Part shown: positions 3,512 to 16,048 of the stretch, piece by piece
Position numbering within the stretch: position 1 is the stretch's first letter
How the letters are laid out: every line of letters begins with the position of its first letter
From: Myxococcota bacterium
GTDB lineage: Bacteria; Myxococcota_A; SURF-8; G963663525
Reading direction: 5' to 3'
DNA: 64,000 bases
NCBI GenBank assembly: GCA_963676915.2
Contig: CAXXVK010000043.1
Location: forward strand, 224,001 to 288,000
Translations under genes and position numbers: made by a program
Notes under the pieces: model-generated
The model's database searches: none
What the model was told of the DNA's origin: nothing
What the model saw: only the letters and a program-made list of their open reading frames with translations

Positions 3512-3541
3512 AAGACGTTTCACTTGCCTGAAAGGATAATC

Positions 3542-4803
3542 ATGTCGGTTCTATATGATGCCTCACGGCCCAAAGCCTGGGTGCTTGCCATCGGTGAAGA
3601 GATTCTGCGTGGTGAATTGGTGGATACCAACACGGCGTTTTTGTCTGAACGATTGGAAAAGCTCGGGTTTTCGGTACGGCGTCAACTGACGATAGGGGAT
3701 GATCGGTGCGAGCTGATGGAAATTCTTCGGGAAGCCGCTCGCATGGCTCGGGTTGTTGTTTGTACGGGCGGATTGGGACCGACCGGCGACGACATAACCG
3801 CTGCCAGTGCCGCCGAAGCTTTTGGGAGAACAACGAAGCTCGACGAACAAGCCCGCCGCATGGTGGAAGAACGGATCGCCGTGTACGGTCTCAAGCCGGA
3901 TGCCGCCAATCTGAAACAGGCGGAAATTCCCGAGGGTGCGCGAATCGTACCCAATCCTCTGGGAACTGCTCCGGGAATCGAAATGGACGAGAATGGGTGC
4001 ACATTGTTTTTCCTACCGGGCGTTCCTCGGGAAATGAAACCCATGTTCCAGGAAACGGTTGAAACGAAACTGAAAGAGATTTCAGGGGGGGCGGAGGCTG
4101 GGACATCGGTGAAACTGTCGTTTTTCGCATCGGGGAATCTCGCGTTGCCAAAGCGGTTGCCGATTTGGAGCAGGCAAACCCGGATATCGCATTTCGATAC
4201 CGTTTTACATTTCCGGTAAATCATCTGACGTTGCAGGCTACCGAAGGACGGGCCGACGCAAAATTGACCGAGATTGTTGAAACAATTGCGGAACGACTCG
4301 AAAAATACCTGTTTAGTCGGAATGGAAAAAGCCACCCAGAGGTGGTGTTCGAGTTGCTTCGGCAGCACGGGAATACTCTCGCTACGGCGGAATCCTGTAC
4401 GGGGGGCTGGATTGCCAAGCTGATCACGGATCTTCCGGGGTCTAGTGATGTATTTCACGAAGGTGTGGTGACGTATTCCAACGAAGCTAAAATGCGCCTG
4501 TTAGGGGTTCCCGAGGCGATGATTGCAGAGCACGGGGCCGTCTCCGAGCCTGTGGTTCGTGCGATGGCCGAAGGAATGAAGAGTCGAGTGGGAACGGATT
4601 TTGCCGTGGCGGTCAGCGGTGTGGCAGGTCCGGGAGGTGGGTCCGAAGAAAAGCCGGTCGGGACCGTCTGGTTGGGGATGGCGCATCCCGAAGGCGTTGT
4701 AAGCACGTGCAGGCGCTTTCCCGGTTCGAGAGAAGCGGTGCGGTTGTTGTCGGCCCATGCCGCCTTGGAGTTGGTTCGTCGCCATTTGAAAGGTTTTTTG
4801 TAA
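3542..4803 (+). CDS. cinA: CinA/PncC competence-damage inducible protein (NMN deamidase), frameshift near 4120-4135
   Basis: IGEEILRGELVDTN, TGGLGPTGDDIT and LPGVPREM in the first ORF; ATAESCTGG, HGAVSE and SGVAGPGGGSEEKPVG in the second. Confidence 0.88.
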
Positions 4804-5133: not shown

Positions 5134-5967
5134 ATTTTTCCTTTACATTCCGAAAGTGGACACGTTAGGACAATCATCGTCCCATACGAGGTCGTCCCTT
5201 CGCTTGTTGGCTAGGAGAGAAGAAAAACACGCAAAATCCAAAATGGGGGAAATGCTTCCGGGTTGATCTGTACGTGAGGATAAACCCAGAAGGGGTGTGT
5301 CGTTTTTTGACGGGAAACGGATCGAAAAATGACGGTAGGAAGAACTTTTTTCTTTTTTTCCTGTTTTCTGAAGCTGTGCAACAAATCCGGTGAGCTTTCG
5401 GTTTCTGTTGTAACGGCCTTTCATGTTTGTGCATTTTCTCAAGGAAGCCTGCTTTTTAGAAATATTGAATAGAATTATTCTAAGCGTTTGAAATAATAAA
5501 GAATCTTCCAAAGTTTGGAGCATCTAATACAAAAAGGGTCATATGCCTAAGTTTTGTATTGTTTCTAAATGTGTAAAAATGTGTGTTACGAAATTGAAAA
5601 CAGTATGCTAGGCGACTTTTTGGACCGAAAAAAGTTAGGTGTCTATAATAAATCACGCCTCTGTCCCAGCCGGGAACCTGTGCAAAACTCTTGTTTAACC
5701 TAGGACTTTATGGTACTCCTTTCAGTCGGTGGCATCGTGGTGGCTGCCTGCAAAGATAGAGTGCTGAAACCCCGTTGATACGACAGTTTTCGACGGGCGA
5801 CCCAAAGGTTCCTGCTAACTGCGGGTTTACATAGTCAAGGTTATATGGCGTCGTTAGGTGATTCATAACTGGATCTTTACCGGAGAAAGCGTCGTAGTGC
5901 GTCAAAAGACGGCGTGCGTTCCGGCGAGGATCGAAATTTCCGATGGGTAAGCAAAGGAGATCCCGAA

Positions 5968-6186
5968 ATGATTGAAACCAAGGAAAAGAAAAAAGACTGG
6001 AAAGGCGATGAAGTGGAGGTTCTTGGTGCGACCTATGAAGAGGGTGTCGCCAAAGATGCCGACCGCTGGCGCGGAAAAATGCGGAACCGCGAAGAGATGA
6101 TGAGTTATATCAAAAGCAGCTTCCGCTATTGGTATGCCAAGGACGAGGAAGTTTTCGGCAGCGAGAAACGCAAAACTCCTGCGTAA
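5968..6186 (+). CDS. Small hypothetical protein leading the acs operon
   Basis: AAGGAGA RBS before ATG 5968; 72 aa, Trp/Tyr-containing; 65 bp upstream of acsD. Confidence 0.7.
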   Translation: MIETKEKKKDWKGDEVEVLGATYEEGVAKDADRWRGKMRNREEMMSYIKSSFRYWYAKDEEVFGSEKRKTPA

Positions 6187-6251
6187 GAACCCGTACTTGT
6201 CAAGAGTAAGAAACCGAAACTAATTCCAAACTTTACCTGTGGAGTGAATAT

Positions 6252-7762
6252 ATGGCTGTTGAAATTCCCAAATCTTCCTATTCGGGATCGATACGGGAAA
6301 TCGCTGTGAAAGGCGATAAAGGGTTTACCGTTGGTGGCGAAACCACTATGCCCTTTTACTCTTTCGAAGGCGAGATGCCCCATAAGACCCGAATTGCAAT
6401 CGAAATCAACGATATCGTCCCCGAGGAATGGGCACCCGAACTGAACAACGTTTGGGGTGATGTCTACAAAGATCCGGTAGCCTGGGCCAAAAAAGCGCAG
6501 GACGAATTCCACGCGGATATGATTCACCTCGAATTGGTCGGTACCGATCCCAACGGCAAAAACCTTGGACCGGAGCACGCAGCGGAAGTCGCCAAAAAAG
6601 TGGCGGATGCCATCGACGTGCCGTTGACGGTCTGGGGATCGTCCAACCAACCCAATGACATCAAGATTCTTCGCGCCGTGGCGGAAGCGATCACGGATCG
6701 TCAAGTTCTCATCGGACCGATCCAGGACGAGAATTACAAGCAGATCGGCGCAGGCGTCATGGCGTACAACCATATTGCCGTGGCCAACTCTCCCATTGAC
6801 ATCAACCTGGCCAAACAGCTTAATATTTTGCTGAGCCAATTGGGTGTCAAGGATGATCAGATCATTATCGATCCGACCATCGGTGGCTTGGGATACGGCC
6901 TGGAATATGCCTATTCGGTCATGGAACGCGCACGTCTGGCCGCTCTGGTCCAACAGGACGATAAACTCCAGTACCCGATTTATGCCAACCTGGGTCGGGA
7001 AGCCTGGAAGTCCAAAGAAGTCAAGCAGACCATCGAAGAAGCTCCCGAACTGGGCGATCCCGTTACTCGGGGTATCCTCGTCGAAGCCGTAACCGCCGTG
7101 GCCTGCCTGGTTTCCGGTGCGAACGTGCTGGTTCTGCGCCATCCCAAAACCATCGAACTGATTCGGCAATTCACCGACGAACTGACGTCGGACGAAGCGC
7201 CGGTGTATGTAAAGCTTCCCGAAGCCTCTGGTGCTGTGGAAGTGAAGTTGGATGCCAAGGCTGCGCCGAAGCCCGCAAAGAAAGCCGCGCCGAAACCGGC
7301 CGCCAAACCGGCAGCAGACGACGACAAGAAGAAGAAAGAAGCCGAGGCGAAAGCCAAAGCGGATGCCGAAGCCAAGAAGAAGGCCGAGGCGGAAGCGAAG
7401 GCAAAGGCAGAAGCCGAAGCAAAAGCCAAGGCGGAAGAAGATAAGAAAAAGCCGAAGAAGCGGCCAAAGTAAAGGCCATGGAAGAAGCCAAGGCCAAAGA
7501 AGAAGCCAAACCCGCACCGACGGCGGCTCCTGTGGTGGAAGCCAAGGAAGAAACCGTCACGCTTTCTGCGGATGCGGCCAGTGTAGACGTTGCGAAGTCC
7601 ATCAGTCTTCCCGGATCGGCCAGTGGTCCCGTGACAATCGTCATCACCGTTGGTGAGGAAGAAGAAGACGATGCGGATATTGCCGCACTTCGCGCCATTG
7701 TAGAACAGCAACAGGCTGCTATTAAAGCTCTCAAGGAGCAACTGAAAAGGAGAATGTCGTGA
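6252..7762 (+). CDS. acsD: Corrinoid Fe-S protein small (delta) subunit with long K/A/E/P-rich C-terminal extension; frameshift near 7450
   Basis: VGGETTMPFYSFEG, SPIDINLAKQLN, GGLGYGLEYAYSVMER and LVLRHP motifs. One added A in the 7446-7450 A-run joins ORF 6252..7472 to ORF 7478..7762. Confidence 0.9.
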
Positions 7763-9901
7763 AAATTGAAATCAAAGTCGGAGAAGAGAAAAAGGGATCA
7801 GGGATTGCCTCGAATCTGAAAGCTCTGATCGAGCAACAGAAGGCTGAATTGGCCGAGTTGCGCAATCTCATCGAAGGTGCTCCCGCTGCTCCCGCCGCCG
7901 CTGCAGCTCCTGCTGCTGCCAAGCCCGCTGCGGCGAAAGTCGTGGCCGCCAAGCCCAAACCGAAAAAGCCGGCTGGTCCGAAAAGCGTAGATTCCACCGC
8001 GTTGGAGACGTTGGATATCGCAAAAGACCTCAATGTCATGACCGCTTGGGATCGTCTCGAAAAACAAACTCCTCAATGCTCCTTCGGTTCGGGCGGCATC
8101 TGCTGCCGTATCTGCTCGATGGGTCCATGCCGGATCAAGAAGACCAAAGAAGGCGAACCCGAAAGCCGAGGCGTTTGCGGTGCGACCGCCGACGTTATCG
8201 CCGCTCGTAACTTCGTTCGTATGATCGCTGCCGGTGCATCGGCTCACTCCGACCACGGACGCGCCGTGGCCGAAACTCTGGTGTTGACCGCCAAGGGTGA
8301 AGCTCCCGGTTACGAAATCAAGGACGAGCAGAAACTTCTGATGATCGCTCTGGACTTCGGTATCGAAATCGAAGGTCGCACGATCAATGAAATCGCTCTG
8401 GATGTCGGCGAAACAGCCCTGGCCGAGTTCGGCAAGCAGAGTGGCGAATTGCTGTTCCTCAAGCGTGCCCCGCTGAAACGTCAGCAAATCTGGCGTGAAA
8501 ACAACATGGCTCCGCGTGGTGTGGACCGTGAGATCGTCGAAATCATGCACCGTACCCACATGGGTGTGGACCAGGAAATGCACAGCCTGATGGAGCAAGG
8601 CTCCCGCGCCGCCATCGGCGACGGCTGGGGCGGATCGATGATCGGCACCGAGCTGCAGGACATCCTGTTCGGTACCCCCCGTTCCGATCATGGGCGAAGC
8701 CAACCTCGGTATCCTAAAAGAGGATCAGGTCAATATCATTATTCATGGTCACGAACCTATTCTTTCCGAGCAGATCGTTGCCGCAGCGCAAGATCCCGAA
8801 TTGCTCGAATATGCGAAATCCAAAGGTGCCAATGGCATCAACCTGGGTGGTATCTGCTGCACCGCCAACGAAATTCTGATGCGCCACGGCGTGAACGTAG
8901 CCGGTGACTTCCTGCAACAGGAACTGGCCATCGTGACGGGTGCTGTGGAAGCCATGGTCGTGGATGTACAGTGCATTATGTGCTCGCTACCCAACGTGGC
9001 GGAGAAATTCCACACCAAGATCATCACCACCAGCCCGCGTGCCAAGATGAACGATGCCGAGCACATCGAATTCCACGAGCACGATGCGGTCAACACGGCG
9101 AAGAAGGTCGTCAAAATGGCGATCGACAACTTCCCGAATCGTGGCGAAAACATCAAGATTCCGAAGAAAACCCAGAAACTGGTCGCCGGATTCTCCCACG
9201 AAACCGTCAGCTACCTTCTCGGTGGTGTCTTCCGCTCCTCCTATCGTCCGTTGAACGACAACATCATCAACGGAAAGATTCGCGGTATTGGCGGCGTCGT
9301 CGGTTGCAACAACCCGAAAGCCACCCATGACCGGTATCACATCGATATGGTCAAAGAACTGATCAAGAACGACGTTATCGTTCTTATGACCGGTTGCGGT
9401 GCGTTGGCTCTGGCCAAAGAAGGTCTGTTGGTGCCTGAAGCGGCGAAGGAATTCGCAGGTCCGGGGCTGGCGGAAGTTTGCGAGACCGTCGGTATCCCGC
9501 CGGTGCTCCATATGGGTTCTTGTGTAGACAACTCCCGCATCCTTATGGCGGCCACGGCTGTCGTCAAGGAAGGTGGACTGGGCGACGACATCAGCGACCT
9601 TCCGGCTGCCGGTGCCGCTCCCGAGTGGATGAGCGAAAAAGCCATTTCGATCGGCCAGTACTTCGTGGCATCCGGTGTGTACACCATTTTCACCACGGCA
9701 TTCCCGACCCTGGGTTCCCAGAAATTCACCGACTTCCTGTTCAAAGATTACGAGAACATCGTCGGCGGTATGTGGGACTACGAGGAAGATCCGGTGGAAG
9801 CAGCCCGCAAGATGATCGCCCACATCGACAAGAAGCGCAAAGCGTTGGGTATCGATAAAGCCCGCGAGCGTGTCCTGGTCGGTATGGAAGACCGCATCTA
9901 A
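7759..9901 (+). CDS. cooS: Anaerobic Ni-CO dehydrogenase catalytic subunit; frameshift in C-run 8675-8680
   Basis: QCSFG..GICCRICSMGPC, AHSDHGR, HGHEP, GICCT, DVQC, GCNN, GSCVD and EWMSEKA cluster ligands. Removing one C restores FGTPVPIMGEANLG. Confidence 0.93.
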
Positions 9902-9953
9902 ACAGGCTATCGTGTATACGAGTAATTCTCTTGACTCATAAAGGAGTATTTCG

Positions 9954-12161
9954 ATGTCGAAAATCATTGCTTCTGCTGGTATTCGCGGGGCTTACAAGAT
10001 TGTAGCCCGCGCTGAAGAAGCCTGGAAAAAGGCGATGGACAGCAACAATCCCAACACGGAAGTGGGGCTGCCCAACACCGGTTACTACCTGCCGATCATC
10101 TACGCACTGTTGGGCCACAAGGTCGAAACTCTGGACGATATGGCTTTTGTAATCGATCGCTGCAAAAGCCTGCTTCCGCCGCAGGTTTACGAAACCTATC
10201 ACCTGCCCTATCTCGGACCGGTACTCGATGCCGGTATGGCGACCCTGTTTGCCGAAGAGATATTTGAAAGCCTTCGTTATCTGAATGAGCCGGATTTTTA
10301 TCTCCAGAGTGAAGATCCCACGGCCGACAAGCTGTGGTTGGGTGCTGCGGACGACGTTATCATGCGTAAACGTGGCGTCGAGTTCGTCGATGGTTCCGCC
10401 CCCGGTTTCGCCGCTATTCTCGGTGCGGCCCCGACTGCGCAGATCGCCGCCGATATCGCGCTCGAACTGCAAAAGAAGAACCTCTACACCTTTATGGCAG
10501 GCAGTTATCAGGGAAAAACCTTCTCCGAGCAGCTCGTCGAAGCCGGTGTGGAAGTCGGTTGGAACACTCGTCTCGTTCCCTTCGGACCGGACACTTCCGC
10601 CGCCATCTTCGCCGTCGGTTTCGCGACCCGCGCCGCCATGTCCTTCGGTGGTATCGAACCCGGACGTGCCCGCGACATTCTGATTTACAACAAAGACCGC
10701 GTGTTCGCCTTTGCGCTGACCTTCGGTGAAGTCACCGACGAATGGTACGCCAACGGCGCCGGAATCATCAACTACGGCTTCCCGGTCATCGCCGATACGC
10801 CGATTCCCGAGATTCTGCCCACCGGTGTTTGCACCTACGAGCATGTCGTATCCAACGTGGATTACGAAAGCATCGTTCAGAAAGCCATCGAGGTTCGCGG
10901 CCTGAAGGTCACGATTACCGAGGTTCCGGTTCCCGTCGCTTACGGTCCCGCGTTCGAAGGCGAGCGCGTACGTGGCGAAGACATCTACTACGAAGCGGGC
11001 GGTGGTCGCACCCAGGCGGTCGAACTCGTCGTTTCGAAGGAAATGGACGAAATCGAGGATGGAAAAATCACCCTCGTCGGTCCCGACCTCAAGGATCTCG
11101 GACCCGGAAAGCGCACTCCGCTGGCGATCTTCGTCGAAGTGGCCGGACGCCAGATGCAACCGGACTTCGAGCCGATTCTCGAACGTCAGATTCACCACTT
11201 GATCAACTTCGCCCAAGGTATGATGCATATCGGACAGCGTGACATTGCGTGGGTCCGCATCGCGAAGGGCGCGGTAGAAAAGGGCTTGAGCCTGAGCCAC
11301 ATCGGAAGCATCCTGCACGCCAAGTTGCATCAGGACTTCGGTACGATTCTGGATAAGGTGCAAGTGACGGTCTACACCGAGGAAGAGGAAGCGACCAAGA
11401 TTCTCAAACTGGCTCGCGCCAAATACAAAGAACGTGACGAGCGTGTCGAAGGTATGCGGGACGAAGATACCGAAACCTTCTATTCCTGCACGCTGTGTCA
11501 GTCCTTTGCACCTACCCACGTTTGTGTGGTTACACCCGAACGTGCCGGTCTGTGCGGTGCCTATTCCTGGCTGGATTGCAAAGCTTCCAACGAAATCAAC
11601 CCCACCGGTCCGAACCAGCCGATCGAAAAGGGCGAAACTATCGACGAGCGCCTCGGTCAGTGGTCTGGTGTCAATGATTTCGTTTCCAAGGCTTCACGCG
11701 GAAACGTTGGTAGCTACAACGCATACTCCATCATGGACAACCCGATGACGAGTTGCGGTTGCTTCGAAGCCATCGCGGCGTTCTTGCCGACTTGCAACGG
11801 TATCATGATCGTGGATCGTGATTATCGTGGCATGACCCCCTCGGGCATGAAGTTCACGACGCTGGCCGGTTCCGTCGGTGGTGGCGCGATTACCCCCGGC
11901 TTCGTTGGACACAGTAAGCTGTACATCACCTCCCGCAAATTCGTCAGCGCGGATGGTGGTTTGAAGCGTATCGTCTGGATGCCTAAAGCTCTGAAAGAGG
12001 AAATCTCCGACCGCTTCAACAAGCGTGCCGAGGAAGAAGGTATACCGGATCTGCTCGACAAGATCGCCGATGAGACGGTCGGAACGACCGAAGACGAAAT
12101 CTATGCCTGGCTGGAAGAACAAGGACATCCGGCGCTGAGTATGGATTCGATGATGGGATAA
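9954..12161 (+). CDS. acsB: Acetyl-CoA synthase (ACS)
   Basis: PNTGYYLP, SCTLCQSFAPTHVC, GLCGA and MTSCGCFE A-cluster motifs; 735 aa. Confidence 0.96.
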   Translation: MSKIIASAGIRGAYKIVARAEEAWKKAMDSNNPNTEVGLPNTGYYLPIIYALLGHKVETLDDMAFVIDRCKSLLPPQVYETYHLPYLGPVLDAGMATLFAEEIFESLRYLNEPDFYLQSEDPTADKLWLGAADDVIMRKRGVEFVDGSAPGFAAILGAAPTAQIAADIALELQKKNLYTFMAGSYQGKTFSEQLVEAGVEVGWNTRLVPFGPDTSAAIFAVGFATRAAMSFGGIEPGRARDILIYNKDRVFAFALTFGEVTDEWYANGAGIINYGFPVIADTPIPEILPTGVCTYEHVVSNVDYESIVQKAIEVRGLKVTITEVPVPVAYGPAFEGERVRGEDIYYEAGGGRTQAVELVVSKEMDEIEDGKITLVGPDLKDLGPGKRTPLAIFVEVAGRQMQPDFEPILERQIHHLINFAQGMMHIGQRDIAWVRIAKGAVEKGLSLSHIGSILHAKLHQDFGTILDKVQVTVYTEEEEATKILKLARAKYKERDERVEGMRDEDTETFYSCTLCQSFAPTHVCVVTPERAGLCGAYSWLDCKASNEINPTGPNQPIEKGETIDERLGQWSGVNDFVSKASRGNVGSYNAYSIMDNPMTSCGCFEAIAAFLPTCNGIMIVDRDYRGMTPSGMKFTTLAGSVGGGAITPGFVGHSKLYITSRKFVSADGGLKRIVWMPKALKEEISDRFNKRAEEEGIPDLLDKIADETVGTTEDEIYAWLEEQGHPALSMDSMMG

Positions 12162-12164
12162 GTC

Positions 12165-12199
12165 CGGATTTACCCGGCCCGATAAGGGCCGGGATTCGG
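12165..12199 (+). other. Intra-operon stem-loop between acsB and acsC
   Basis: CCCGGCCC-GATAA-GGGCCGGG core stem with flanking pairing and no U-tract. Confidence 0.45.
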
Positions 12200-12243
12200 A
12201 ACCTCGTTCATTGAACAGCTCTAAGGAGTGAAGGAGCCAACAC

Positions 12244-13587
12244 ATGGGCTTAAGTGGTATCCAAATTTTTAAAATGCTCCCCAAGACGAATTGTGGAGAT
12301 TGCGGTGTGCCGACCTGTCTTGCCTTCGCCATGAATCTGGCCTCCGGCAAGGCGGAACTCGATTCCTGTCCTCACGTTTCCGACGAAGCGCGAGAAAAAC
12401 TGGAGTCGTCGTCTGCTCCACCGATCCGCACGGTAAAGATGGGGGAAGGTAACAACGAACTTTCCGTTGGTGGCGAGACGGTTTCTTATCGTCACGAAAA
12501 AACCTTTTTCAATCCTCCCGGACTCGCCGTTCTGGTAGCGGATGATGAAGCCGAGGATTCGGTCAAAGGCAAACTCGAACGGCTGATGAAGCTGCAATTC
12601 GAGCGTGTCGGAGTGAATCTGCGCGCCGAATGCGTAGCGCTCAAATCCAATACGGGCGATGCTGGCAAATTCAAAGCGCTGGCGGAAGTGGTCAAAGAAA
12701 ACTCCGACGCCGTGCCGATCCTGATGGGCGAAGCGGATGTGATCGCAGACGCTCTGGAAGTGCTCAAAGAGCGCCGCCCGATTCTGTACGCCGCACACCG
12801 TGCGAACGCCCAGGCCATGGCGGAGTTGGCGCAGAAATACGATGCGCCGCTGGCCGTGGTAGGGGAAAACCTTGACGAAGTGGCCGATCTGACTCAGAAA
12901 TTGACCGATGCAGGTCTGAAAGATCTGTTGATCGACGGCGGTTGCCGCAGCATCAAGCAAGCGCTTTTCGATCAAGTCGCCATGCGTCGTCTGGCCACCC
13001 AGCAGACCTTCCGTCCGATGGGCTTCCCTTCCATTGTGTTCCCCTGCGAGATGACCGATGATTTCCTGATGGAAAACGTCTATGCCTCGCTGTTCATCGC
13101 CAAGTATGCCGGAATCATCGTCATGAGCGATCTTCGGGGCGAGAACCTCTATCCGCTGACCGTCGAACGCCTCAATATCTACACCGACCCGCAACGGCCG
13201 ATGAAGACCACCGAGGGCATTTACGAGTTGAACAACCCGACGGAAGAATCTCCGGTGCTGATTACCTCGAACTTCTCGTTGACCTACTTTGTGGTGTCCG
13301 GCGAAATCGAGGCCAGCCGCGTTCCCACCTGGCTGCTCGTGCTCGATACCGATGGATTGTCGGTACTAACTGCTTGGGCTGCCGGAAAATTCGTCGGCGA
13401 TACGGTAGGTGCGCTCGTCAAGAAGTGTGGCATCGAGGACAAAGTCAAAACCAAAAAGCTGGTACTGCCTGGATACGTTGCCGTGTTGACCGGTGACGTC
13501 GAAGAAGAACTTCCCAATTGGGAAGTGATCGTCGGTCCGCGGGAAAGTGCTCACATTCCCGCTTTCCTGAAGCAGAATTACGCTTAA
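12244..13587 (+). CDS. acsC: Corrinoid Fe-S protein large (gamma) subunit
   Basis: LPKTNCGDCGVPTCLAFA...CP [4Fe-4S] motif, NIYTDPQRP, SNFSLTYF, GLSVLTAWAAGKF. Confidence 0.96.
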   Translation: MGLSGIQIFKMLPKTNCGDCGVPTCLAFAMNLASGKAELDSCPHVSDEAREKLESSSAPPIRTVKMGEGNNELSVGGETVSYRHEKTFFNPPGLAVLVADDEAEDSVKGKLERLMKLQFERVGVNLRAECVALKSNTGDAGKFKALAEVVKENSDAVPILMGEADVIADALEVLKERRPILYAAHRANAQAMAELAQKYDAPLAVVGENLDEVADLTQKLTDAGLKDLLIDGGCRSIKQALFDQVAMRRLATQQTFRPMGFPSIVFPCEMTDDFLMENVYASLFIAKYAGIIVMSDLRGENLYPLTVERLNIYTDPQRPMKTTEGIYELNNPTEESPVLITSNFSLTYFVVSGEIEASRVPTWLLVLDTDGLSVLTAWAAGKFVGDTVGALVKKCGIEDKVKTKKLVLPGYVAVLTGDVEEELPNWEVIVGPRESAHIPAFLKQNYA

Positions 13588-13613
13588 TGGTAAAAAGTTT
13601 GGTTTGCGAATCA

Positions 13614-13654
13614 CCCGACTTCTCCTATACTGCTAGGGGGAGTCGGGCTCTTTT
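13614..13654 (+). terminator. Terminator-like hairpin after acsC
   Basis: CCCGACTTCTCCTA...TAGGGGGAGTCGGG followed by CTCTTTT. Confidence 0.5.
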
Positions 13655-13686
13655 GTTCTAACCTCATAGATGGAAGGGAAGGGAAA

Positions 13687-14577
13687 ATGCTTTTTGTTGC
13701 CGAGAACATCAACGTGATGTCGAAATCCTTGGGACCGGCCATGCGCAACCGCGAAGCCGGACCGATCGAGAACATGGCGAAAATCCTTGCCGCAAACGGC
13801 GCGGATTATCTCGATGTCAACGTCGGTCCTGCCCGTAAAAACGGTGCGGAAATGGTCGAGTGGGTCGTCAAAACGGTTCAGGGTGCGGTAGACAAACCTC
13901 TGTGGGTCGATACCACCAATATCGAAGCCATGGAAGCCGGACTGAAAGCCCACAACAACAGTTGGGGACAACCGGTGATCAACTCCATCGACGCCACCGA
14001 GGCTCGTATGGAAAAAATGATCCCGATGGTCGCCAAGTACAACACCAAAATGGTCGCATTGCTGTACGGAGTGGACGGTATCCCCCGCGACGAAAACGAG
14101 CGTGGTCTGATGGCCGCCGACCTGCTGATGAAGACCATGGAAGCCGGGATTCCTGCCGAGGACATTTTCTACGATCCGATCGTTGTTCCCGTTTCTTCGC
14201 AGCAGAACCAGGTTGTGGCCTGCACGGCGTTCATGGAAATGCTCGGTGACATCGCCCCCGGTGCCGGAAGCACCTGCGGCCTGTCGAATATTTCCAACGG
14301 TTCTCCCGAAGAACTGCGCCACGTTCTCAATCATGCCTATGTGATCATGCTCAAGCATCGTGGCATGAGCTCGGCTATCCTCGACGGCCTCGACAAGACC
14401 ATTATGGATATCGCCAAAGATCGTCGCGCCGACTTGGAAGAAGCCGTGACGAAGGCCGAATCCGGCGAATGGAATGCCAGCACGACGGGCCTGTCCGAAG
14501 AACAGATGAACATGGTCAAGTCGGTGAAAGTTCTCACCAACAACGCCCTGTACTCCGATTCCTGGCTCGAACTGTAA
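13687..14577 (+). CDS. acsE: Methyl-THF:corrinoid Fe-S protein methyltransferase (pterin-binding barrel)
   Basis: AENINV, GADYLDVN, PLWVDTTN, INSI, FYDP and CGLSNISNG motifs; operon context. Confidence 0.88.
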   Translation: MLFVAENINVMSKSLGPAMRNREAGPIENMAKILAANGADYLDVNVGPARKNGAEMVEWVVKTVQGAVDKPLWVDTTNIEAMEAGLKAHNNSWGQPVINSIDATEARMEKMIPMVAKYNTKMVALLYGVDGIPRDENERGLMAADLLMKTMEAGIPAEDIFYDPIVVPVSSQQNQVVACTAFMEMLGDIAPGAGSTCGLSNISNGSPEELRHVLNHAYVIMLKHRGMSSAILDGLDKTIMDIAKDRRADLEEAVTKAESGEWNASTTGLSEEQMNMVKSVKVLTNNALYSDSWLEL

Positions 14578-14600
14578 ACGACAATATAAGAAGGAATGCG

Positions 14601-15275
14601 ATGACCTCGGAGGATAAACGCCCCGAACTCGTCAAGCAGACCAACCTCGAAACAGCCTTGCAGTTGGCGCTGGATATCCTGCGCCAACGCAGGGCTGTTG
14701 ATTTTTCCGAGCGTTGCGGGGTGGATGTATACGAAATCGACGGAAAAACCGTCGTAGACCTGCCATATTTCAACGAGCATTGCCGGTTCACACTGCCGGA
14801 TTGGGATGCTGAAATCGACAACGGGCGACCGCTCTATCTGTACGAAAAAATCTTTTTGCTGCACTATCTTGCATCGGAAGGCTACGAAACGGACAAAGAA
14901 GGGTTGATCGCCTTCAGCGAAATTCCCGACGGTCGGTTTTACGAAGACGCTTTTCGTCGTCGAGCCAAAGTGCCTTTGGTGGGAATATTCGGCGAAATTC
15001 CGGATCGTTTGCTGGAAGCGGCAACGAAATATCTCGATGCCGAGCCGACCCAGGATGCGGATGTGGCTTTTCGGGTACGTGTTTTTCCGAAAGTTCCCGT
15101 AACGGTGCAACTGTGGAGAGGTGACGATGAATTCCCGCCGGAAGGGAATTTTTTATTCAAACCTGATATCAATCACTTCCTTTCGGCGGAAGACGTTGCC
15201 ATTTTAACGGGTATGGTATTGGGTAAACTGAAATTCGCGCTCAAGCAGTTGGATGAGGAAGGAGAACTGACGTGA
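14601..15275 (+). CDS. DUF3786-like protein
   Basis: IFLLHYL, FSEIPDG..Y..AF, FPKVPV..LWRGDDEFPP..FLF and LSAEDVA pattern; family commonly sits near acs genes. Confidence 0.75.
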   Translation: MTSEDKRPELVKQTNLETALQLALDILRQRRAVDFSERCGVDVYEIDGKTVVDLPYFNEHCRFTLPDWDAEIDNGRPLYLYEKIFLLHYLASEGYETDKEGLIAFSEIPDGRFYEDAFRRRAKVPLVGIFGEIPDRLLEAATKYLDAEPTQDADVAFRVRVFPKVPVTVQLWRGDDEFPPEGNFLFKPDINHFLSAEDVAILTGMVLGKLKFALKQLDEEGELT

Positions 15276-16048
15276 GTCTCAAACTGGCGATTGGTGGCAA
15301 AGGCGGAGTAGGGAAAACGACGGTTTCGGCCCTGTTGTCGAGAATTCTGGCAAGCAGGGGGCAGCGGGTGATCGCCATCGATGCCGATCCCGTGACGAAT
15401 CTTGCGGCAGGTCTGGGGATCCCCGAAGACGAGCCGATTACACCGATTGCCGAGTTGTCCGAACTCATCGAAGAACGCACCGGAGCGAAACCCGGCACGA
15501 TGGGCGGCTTTTTTACGCTCAATCCTAAAGTGGACGATATTCCCGACCGCTTCAGCCGGGAACGCGATGGCGTCAAGCTGCTGGTGATGGGAACGATCCA
15601 AACCGGTGGGATGGGATGTATTTGTCCCGAAAGCACGATTCTAAAAGCCCTGATGCAGCATCTTGTCCTGTATCGGGACGACATCGTGATCATGGATATG
15701 GAAGCAGGTGTCGAGCACCTTGGGCGGGCGACATCTCGTTCGGTGGATGCCCTGCTGATCGTCGTCAACCCCGGCGCACGCAGTCGGATGGCAGCTCACC
15801 GCATTCGTAAACTGGCCACCGATATCGGTATTCAGCACGTTATGGTGTTGGGAAATCGGTTTCGTGGTCCCGAGGACGAAGCCTTGTTGAGAGAATCTCT
15901 GCCGGACTTCGAAGTCATCGGCACGATTCCCGAGATGGAAGATGTGATTCAGGCCGACAGAGATGCGAAACGCCCGTTCGAAAACATCGAAGAGGCTCCG
16001 AAACCTCTGTTCGACCTGGCGGAAAGGGTGCTTACTCTGTCCCGCTGA
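15272..16048 (+). CDS. cooC: CooC/AcsF Ni-insertion ATPase
   Basis: GKGGVGKTT, IDADP, GCICPE and DMEAGVEHLGR. Confidence 0.92.
   Translation: MSLKLAIGGKGGVGKTTVSALLSRILASRGQRVIAIDADPVTNLAAGLGIPEDEPITPIAELSELIEERTGAKPGTMGGFFTLNPKVDDIPDRFSRERDGVKLLVMGTIQTGGMGCICPESTILKALMQHLVLYRDDIVIMDMEAGVEHLGRATSRSVDALLIVVNPGARSRMAAHRIRKLATDIGIQHVMVLGNRFRGPEDEALLRESLPDFEVIGTIPEMEDVIQADRDAKRPFENIEEAPKPLFDLAERVLTLSR

Follow-up and report, generated by a model that had tools for sequence, protein, structure and literature searches.

Why should two enzymes encoded by adjoining genes carry versions of the same small module at the ends that face each other? This question is raised by the acetyl-CoA synthase (acs) cluster of a Myxococcota bacterium, located at 5914–14577 on the plus strand of the window according to the list of open reading frames (ORFs) and to Pfam. 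By the window we mean the whole stretch of 64,000 nucleotides of contig CAXXVK010000043.1 that was analyzed; the features described below from 5914 onward lie on its plus strand. A module of about 45 residues ends AcsD, the small subunit of the corrinoid iron-sulfur protein (CoFeSP), and a second copy opens CooS, the carbon monoxide dehydrogenase (CODH) linked to acetyl-CoA synthase (ACS). An earlier note on this DNA had proposed a docking pair tethering CoFeSP to CODH/ACS. This proposal now gains the paralogy of the two copies, their restriction to two proteins, their co-occurrence, their conservation by selection, and their covariation, and it loses the heterospecificity expected from one acidic and one basic loop. 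[quoted passage not shown]

The two carriers are readily recognized. AcsD belongs to the CdhD family (PF03599; E = 1e-42, 146.7 bits against a Pfam gathering score of 24.8), the match covering residues 22–303 of the ORF as deposited (6252–7472). CooS matches Prismane (PF03063) over nearly its full length, in two pieces, and acsB follows as the next gene downstream at 9954. The catalytic core of AcsD (residues 1 to ~314; 6252–7193), which is 93% identical to that of G001, a genome of the same genus, is followed by an arm of ~140 aa (7194–7624), about 80% of which is Ala, Glu, Lys, Pro, and Asp. The AcsD module comes last (7625–7759, with the stop codon TGA at 7760–7762) and consists of the strand VTIVITVG, an acidic loop, a three-heptad helix, and an RR-x-S end. 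CooS starts with a GTG codon and its own copy (7759–7878; strand KIEIKVG, loop, and three-heptad helix). A 35-aa Ala/Pro/Lys linker, recognized by its composition and predicted to be disordered at low confidence (7879–7983), then leads to the canonical CODH N-terminus (SVD...) and the CooS/AcsA core, which is spread over two ORFs in the window (7984–9901). A profile hidden Markov model (HMM) of the module detects the AcsD and CooS copies with E values of 6.9e-19 and 7.7e-19, respectively. Both lie beyond the Pfam cores, the CdhD match ending at residue 303 and the Prismane match beginning at residue 114, which agrees with the first description of the modules as additions to the canonical folds. 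They stand head to tail, 128 nt apart in the DNA, and the acsD stop and cooS start share the sequence GTGA at 7759–7762, an overlap that had already been pointed out. Such an overlap occurs in four of the five module-bearing genomes; the fifth, G004, has a gap of ~14 nt.

The tail had been described as lying in the AcsD frame. This does not hold for the window as deposited, where AcsD ends at a TAA codon (7470–7472) and the tail belongs to a separate 94-aa ORF in another frame (7478–7762, with an ATG at 7478), which matches no Pfam family and has no usable match in the protein atlas. The joined frame appears only after one G is restored. In a DNA alignment with G001 (84% identity), the window is one G short after 7450 (AAAAAG-CC against AAAAAGGCC), and this deletion interrupts the arm. 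We compared read-derived contigs with the window over 7200–9000. The contig from run X1 has the extra G behind 7450 and is otherwise identical over 7349–7498; the contig from run X2, which stems from a ~92%-identical relative, has the G as well. Because a read-derived contig and all relatives carry this base, the AcsD break is an assembly error, a one-base deletion. CooS is likewise deposited as two overlapping ORFs (7759–8907 and 8690–9901), which match Prismane profile positions 1–192 and 196–512. They are separated by a C-run near 8672–8677 that counts six C in the window and five in G001, and the X2 contig also has one base fewer at 8677. The X1 contig does not reach this position, and the break, judged from relatives only, is by this comparison an assembly error too. 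The genes are unbroken in G001, G005, G007, and G004 and in the protein P0024, AcsD with its tail forming an uninterrupted product of 500 aa in G001 and of 491–513 aa in G005, G007, and G004. Taking both breaks as assembly errors, we regard AcsD and its tail as a single product of ~500 aa and CooS as one of ~715 aa. Upstream, cinA (3524–4219 and 4165–4803) is similarly split, between its MoCF_biosynth and CinA domains, bringing to three the single-base frameshifts in the window (7450–7451, 8672–8677, and 4165–4219). The assembly seems to suffer from homopolymer indel errors, and other split genes of this genome should be read accordingly.

A start of CooS downstream of the module, for instance at the Met near 8038, was the objection that the earlier note had raised against its own proposal. 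Three observations rule it out. First, the extension evolves as a coding sequence in the CooS frame: between G000, the genome of the window, and G001, we counted 13.2 synonymous and 7.8 non-synonymous differences, giving a ratio of non-synonymous to synonymous change (omega) of 0.12; the two alternative frames have values of 0.72 and 3.1. Second, a Shine-Dalgarno sequence AGGAG (7748–7752), read directly within the end of acsD, lies 6 nt 5' of the GTG. Third, in G007 and G004, CooS begins with an ATG at the residue matching GTG 7759. The AcsD module has an omega of 0.10 in the same comparison, and values for the other frames of the two modules range from 0.7 to 11.7. These ratios of about 0.1 indicate that both copies are under purifying selection.

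The two modules resemble each other more than expected by chance. When the 94-aa ORF was compared by BLASTP with the N-terminal 94 residues of CooS, the alignment was gapless, with 13 of 33 positions identical and 22 of 33 positive (E = 5e-5); the hand alignment of the earlier note, at 13 of 37 positions, was correct in having no gaps. In an alignment of ten modules, the AcsD and CooS copies of the window share 13 of 42 residues. Composition-preserving shuffles of the CooS module never reached the observed ungapped score (0 of 2,000 for each of the five genome pairs). Searched against all 97,522 ORFs from a six-frame translation of the genome, a profile built from the AcsD-side modules of the other genomes had the CooS N-terminus of the window as its best non-self match (E = 8.4e-5, the next match having E = 2); the reverse profile, from the CooS side, retrieved the AcsD tail at E = 0.074 among the same ORFs, the next match being at 14. 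These comparisons indicate that the copies are paralogous.

The ten-module alignment also defines the architecture of this ~45-residue module, an amphipathic beta-strand followed by a loop and a three-heptad helix, and the succession of strand and heptad helix first noticed in the window is kept across it. The strand reads V-T/R-I-V-I-T-V-G in AcsD and M-K-I-E-I-K-V-G in CooS, with Ile, Ile, and Val on one face in both. In the two copies, the helix is hydrophobic at columns 28, 31, 35, 42, 45, and 49, with a near-invariant Gln at column 38. This 3-4-3-4 spacing extends over three heptads, and column 34 and partly column 48 are also hydrophobic, which broadens the apolar face. Both modules show the canonical pattern of a coiled coil, with hydrophobic a and d positions over at least three heptads kept in homologues. 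A sequence profile search of the PDB returned only coiled coils (GCN4, COMP, spike HR1, and Cep85), aligned on the helix part. The RR-x-S end of AcsD is found in four of the five genomes. The loop varies from 8 to 17 residues; its net charge is −2 to −7 in all AcsD copies, whereas the CooS loop of the window has a net charge of 0 and those of the relatives range from −1 to +1. Of the two loops formerly described as acidic and basic, only the acidic one of AcsD is borne out.

In all module-bearing genomes, the modules are carried by long arms, as first described, with Glu in addition to Ala, Pro, and Lys. The AcsD arm measures 129–151 aa, 79–86% of them Ala, Glu, Lys, Pro, or Asp, and its Pro/Ala/Lys stretches stand on either side of an (AEAKAK)n run. 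The CooS arm is an Ala/Pro/Lys segment of 25–40 aa (35 aa in the window, where the whole N-terminal extension of CooS is 75 aa long). AlphaFold2 (AF2) monomer models were of low confidence and were used for secondary structure only, not for fold searches. For G001 AcsD (alignment of five rows; mean predicted local distance difference test score, pLDDT, of 52.7), the model consists of the core up to residue 312, disorder, a helix at 363–413, disorder, short strands, and a helix at 471–499. The helix at 363–413 lies in the (AEAKAK)n run (block pLDDT 50–66), which may be a single stiff helix, an ER/K-type single alpha-helix spacer having been considered. For residues 1–130 of the window CooS (mean pLDDT 49.7), the model has a helix at 17–39 and a disordered linker, and the strand is not drawn. 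Complex prediction from the CooS and AcsD module alignments scored 0.18 and 0.17, with the mark at 0.32 and no controls, and counts neither for nor against binding. The module also bears some resemblance to the p53-type strand-turn-helix tetramerization domain, in which strand-Gly-helix units form a dimer of dimers; we take this as a lead only.

The distribution of the module is narrow. In G000, the module profile reaches E ≤ 10 at the AcsD and CooS sites only. Among ten genomes of the order, four (G000, G001, G005, and G007) have exactly two full-length matches each, and a fifth (G004) has a divergent pair barely seen by the profile, with strands V-T-F-S-F-S-V-T-L-P in AcsD and M-E-F-K-I-N-L-P in CooS and helices that share a KLTE motif. 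AcsD cores are encoded by seven of the ten. Five of these seven have both modules, and two have neither, G003 (whose AcsD is 315 aa long) and G009, both with a CooS that has a short N-terminus. The joint occurrence that the earlier note had suggested looking for with an HMM holds in these genomes, the motif being on both AcsD and CooS or on neither (7 of 7). In 401 genomes of the phylum, full-length matches are restricted to G000, G001, G005, and G007. The nine other matches at E ≤ 0.01 involve the helix only. Eight fall in real proteins without relation to the module, coiled-coil proteins among them, and the ninth (L037) falls in a long, Arg-rich open frame, probably a spurious one. A search of 1.84 billion cluster representatives gave 20 proteins at E ≤ 0.001. 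The single full-length match is P0001, a CooS fragment with a frameshift; the remaining 19 are partial, mostly to the helix and in several stretches, and the five that we inspected are unrelated coiled-coil or repeat proteins. A search of 5.8 billion proteins, in which the 7,998 candidates sharing most words were scored, gave six at E ≤ 0.001, each of them an AcsD or CooS from this clade: two AcsD, three CooS, and the ORF of the window itself. The nearest named relatives are metagenome-assembled genomes (MAGs) labelled Myxococcales (L040, 71% AcsD identity) and Myxococcota (L041, 58%), and in these two we found neither an AcsD tail nor a CooS extension. By these searches, the modules are lineage-specific: they occur only in a few uncultured Myxococcota and, there, only on AcsD and the ACS-linked CODH. 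G000 also encodes three further Prismane proteins without the module, in frames of 544–581 aa on contigs C6, C44, and C58 (L068–L070), each a probable hybrid-cluster protein or a CODH-like protein of the stand-alone kind.

The history of the pair combines an old split with parallel change. In four of the five genomes, orthologous modules are 40–51% identical and the two copies within a genome 29–41%. Because orthologues are usually closer than within-genome copies, the separation of the AcsD copy from the CooS copy is old. The mean identity between AcsD and CooS modules is nevertheless 0.356 within genomes versus 0.245 across genomes, and the true pairing scores best of the 24 possible pairings of four lineages. 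In G004, the copies are 39% identical to each other and 18–29% identical to their orthologues. Several lineage-specific states are common to both copies: the change from VG to LP, helix starts with SSDV or SEL, EIAEL, and the KLTE motif of G004. Recent gene conversion is not supported as the cause of this covariation, given that module DNA identity within genomes is low (44–53%, without long identical tracts) and that only 3–9 codons are identical for 13–20 identical residues. Selection on a common interface is a possible source, as is old conversion.

Only AcsD and CooS carry the module, the two act in the same pathway, conservation and covariation are seen for both copies, both sit on arms, and their genes overlap at stop and start in four of the five genomes; these are the reasons for which we favor a tether. 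The copies would co-assemble, strand with strand and helix with helix. CODH is a dimer, and in solved structures its N-termini are near the dimer axis. The two CooS copies would meet at this axis, where two AcsD copies could join them, and the resulting hub would keep CoFeSP leashed to CODH/ACS. Swinging on these arms, CoFeSP would still have access to both the methyltransferase and the A-cluster, at the outer ends of the complex, and the length of the AcsD arm, ~140 residues, would suit the reach to both the A-cluster of ACS and the methyltransferase. The overlap of stop and start codons would have the AcsD module finished as the CooS module emerges from the same mRNA, which would favor co-translational assembly.

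A related arrangement has been described in archaea. In the archaeal ACDS, CoFeSP is oligomerized by a short helix, located in the disordered N-terminal part of CdhD, that forms a coiled coil, hexa- to octameric as measured with green fluorescent protein fusions; for conserved disordered termini of CdhA (N-terminal) and CdhC (C-terminal), a role in tethering CODH and ACS to it was proposed (Zimmer et al., bioRxiv 2026, PMC13370988). The pathway and the three partners are the same, and in both cases a short, leucine-zipper-like helix occurs in terminal regions of the small subunit of CoFeSP and at the CODH N-terminus, regions whose disorder is, in the Myxococcota proteins, a low-confidence prediction. 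The Myxococcota enzymes differ in being of bacterial type, with a CooS-type CODH and an AcsB that has a CODH-binding domain. The archaeal module is N-terminal on CdhD, whereas that of the Myxococcota AcsD is C-terminal and its N-terminus begins directly with the core. Compared by architecture rather than by sequence, the Myxococcota module also differs in consisting of a strand and a helix and in having copies on CODH and CoFeSP that are clear paralogues. By analogy, the AcsD and CooS modules would work like the archaeal scaffold and yet, by terminus, architecture, and enzyme type, fall outside its membership. We found no description of modules at the C-terminus of bacterial AcsD or the N-terminus of CooS in the literature searched, to which the supplements of PMC13370988, which may show bacterial AcsD models, did not belong.

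Three further systems have elements in common with this pair. Docking domains of polyketide synthases and non-ribosomal peptide synthetases are also short helical or strand elements on linkers that join the C-terminus of one protein to the N-terminus of the next. Their two partners are usually unlike each other, whereas the AcsD and CooS copies are paralogous; those synthases and synthetases are unrelated to the enzymes considered here, and no homology is expected. The swinging arms of the E2 components of 2-oxoacid dehydrogenases are long Ala/Pro/charged linkers with a small binding module, by which a cofactor domain visits several sites. The AcsD arm departs from them in its (AEAKAK)n run, possibly a stiff helix (at low confidence), and in ending with a strand and a helix and not with a peripheral-subunit-binding domain. 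The third case is AcsD of Desulfobacterota, for which we examined eight loci from Desulfobacteraceae, Desulfobulbaceae, and relatives (L043–L046 and L053–L056). There, the same core continues into an arm of Ala/Pro/Lys stretches and (AEAKAK)n, comparable in length (~200 aa), which ends in ...TPAA.QK.EQEKIL.MLNRFHKR. This end-peptide differs from the Myxococcota module in being a conserved helix (...EQEKIL.MLNRFHKR) without a strand, and in the ~6–7 kb covered at each of the eight loci we found no twin of it on CooS or elsewhere, the self-hits being of low complexity. In all, 10 of the 19 judgeable loci from other lineages have a long C-terminal extension of AcsD, of two kinds. On the best available reading, the Myxococcota pair would be a variant of an established principle, in which enzymes are tethered through coiled-coil modules carried at their termini on flexible arms.

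Several points weigh against co-assembly of the two copies. The binding is deduced from patterns in the sequences, and the AF2 monomers are of low confidence, as the mean pLDDT values above indicate. The covariation was assessed on four independent lineages only, for which 1 in 24 is the best attainable result, close kin not being independent, and old gene conversion is a possible source of it. A single duplication and a single deletion, and not functional dependence, could be behind the joint presence or absence; because adjoining modules can be removed by a single deletion, the all-or-none pattern is weaker than it appears. In a tree of AcsD cores, the tail-less G003 falls outside a clade of six, and the tail-less G009 lies in an unresolved fork with tail-bearing genomes, a position that would suit either a loss of the pair in G009 or its absence from the outset. 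The AcsD arm does not in itself call for a matching module on CooS, since the similar Desulfobacterota arms have a different end-peptide for which no twin was found in the ~6–7 kb covered per locus. Charge complementarity is not conserved, and the heterospecificity formerly proposed from the loops is not supported: neither the loop charges nor the e and g positions of the helix, read by eye, favor hetero- over homo-pairing. Finally, within a CODH dimer, the CooS modules could associate among themselves to the exclusion of AcsD, unless a higher-order assembly forms.

These last points are also what speaks for separate self-association, in which the CooS copies would add to CODH dimerization, the AcsD copies would dimerize CoFeSP, and the likeness of the two would be a legacy of duplication without any contact between AcsD and CooS. 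The CODH dimer already brings two N-terminal copies together at high local concentration, the charges show no hetero preference, and in four of the five genomes orthologues are more alike than within-genome paralogues. Such independent pairing fits poorly with the covariation within genomes, including the joint changes of G004 (VG to LP and the KLTE motif), and with the joint presence or absence in seven of seven genomes, and an arm of 140 aa is hard to explain by a simple dimerization of CoFeSP; we consider it unlikely. Improbable to a similar degree, in our judgment, is a shared address label, by which both modules would bind some third partner (for example a compartment, a membrane complex, or a scaffold protein) and not each other. 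Cargo of bacterial microcompartments (BMCs) is likewise addressed by terminal amphipathic helices on flexible linkers, the same hydrophobic face is kept in both copies, and a partner protein without the module would escape our searches. On the other side, G000 (90.8% complete) gave no match to the BMC shell family PF00936, for which a control search was positive in 2 of 14 known genomes, and none to the encapsulin family PF04454, the search covering the family-1 shell only. G000 also has no third carrier of the module, and the helix, as we read it, is of neutral to acidic character, which sets it apart from helices that target membranes. It is very improbable that the 94-aa ORF is a true stand-alone small protein, with genuine breaks and the modules as relics of a decaying acs cluster: the window as deposited, with its stop at 7470 and its split CooS, has this appearance, and the CooS break lies outside the cover of the run identical to the window, but the missing G is the sole difference from the X1 contig over the stretch compared, both breaks are single-base indels, in a two-G run and a C-run, the window has a third split gene in cinA, purifying selection acts on both modules, and the genes are intact in all five other genomes or proteins.

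The acs cluster as a whole is complete and of bacterial type, the nearest named relatives of the lineage being labelled Myxococcales or Myxococcota. Downstream of cooS, Pfam identifies AcsB (9954–12161), with an N-terminal CODH-binding domain (PF18537), AcsC (12244–13587), and an AcsE-like pterin-binding methyltransferase (13687–14577). A DUF3786 protein (14469–15275) is encoded downstream of the methyltransferase, its ORF overlapping the end of acsE, followed by a CbiA/ParA-type P-loop ATPase (15272–16048) that probably serves this cluster as its accessory protein for Ni insertion. Upstream of acsD, a 90-aa ORF (5914–6186) matches no Pfam family. It is homologous (E = 3e-11, 22 of 66 residues identical) to part of the AcsD encoded by two MAGs of Thermodesulfobacteriota (L042 and L050). 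In these, AcsD has a C-terminal extension of ~190 aa, the last ~65 residues of which match the 90-aa ORF and which ends in ...YWYG.GYGSERRKKPA. Because of this fusion, we regard the 90-aa ORF as functionally linked to AcsD.

How CoFeSP finds its way to CODH/ACS is an open point of the Wood-Ljungdahl pathway, and the contacts known so far in bacteria are transient. The Myxococcota clade described here offers a bacterial and genetically compact case of a possible tether, with two modules of 45 residues. In a more far-reaching version of the hub, which we put forward tentatively and hold to be doubtful in its entirety, this bacterial CODH/ACS would have its own ACDS-like supercomplex: a unit copied across the acsD–cooS boundary would form a 2 + 2 or larger hub on the two-fold axis of CODH, assembled during coupled translation and holding two CoFeSP on ~140-residue arms that reach both ends of ACS, and it would be convergent with the archaeal scaffold, with a different fold and at the opposite terminus. 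If the modules bind, they would provide a small, reusable, self-matching tether for engineered C1-fixation enzymes. C-terminal arms of AcsD are common and bear at least three different end-pieces, which points to a general, as yet undescribed layer of organization in bacterial acetyl-CoA synthesis.

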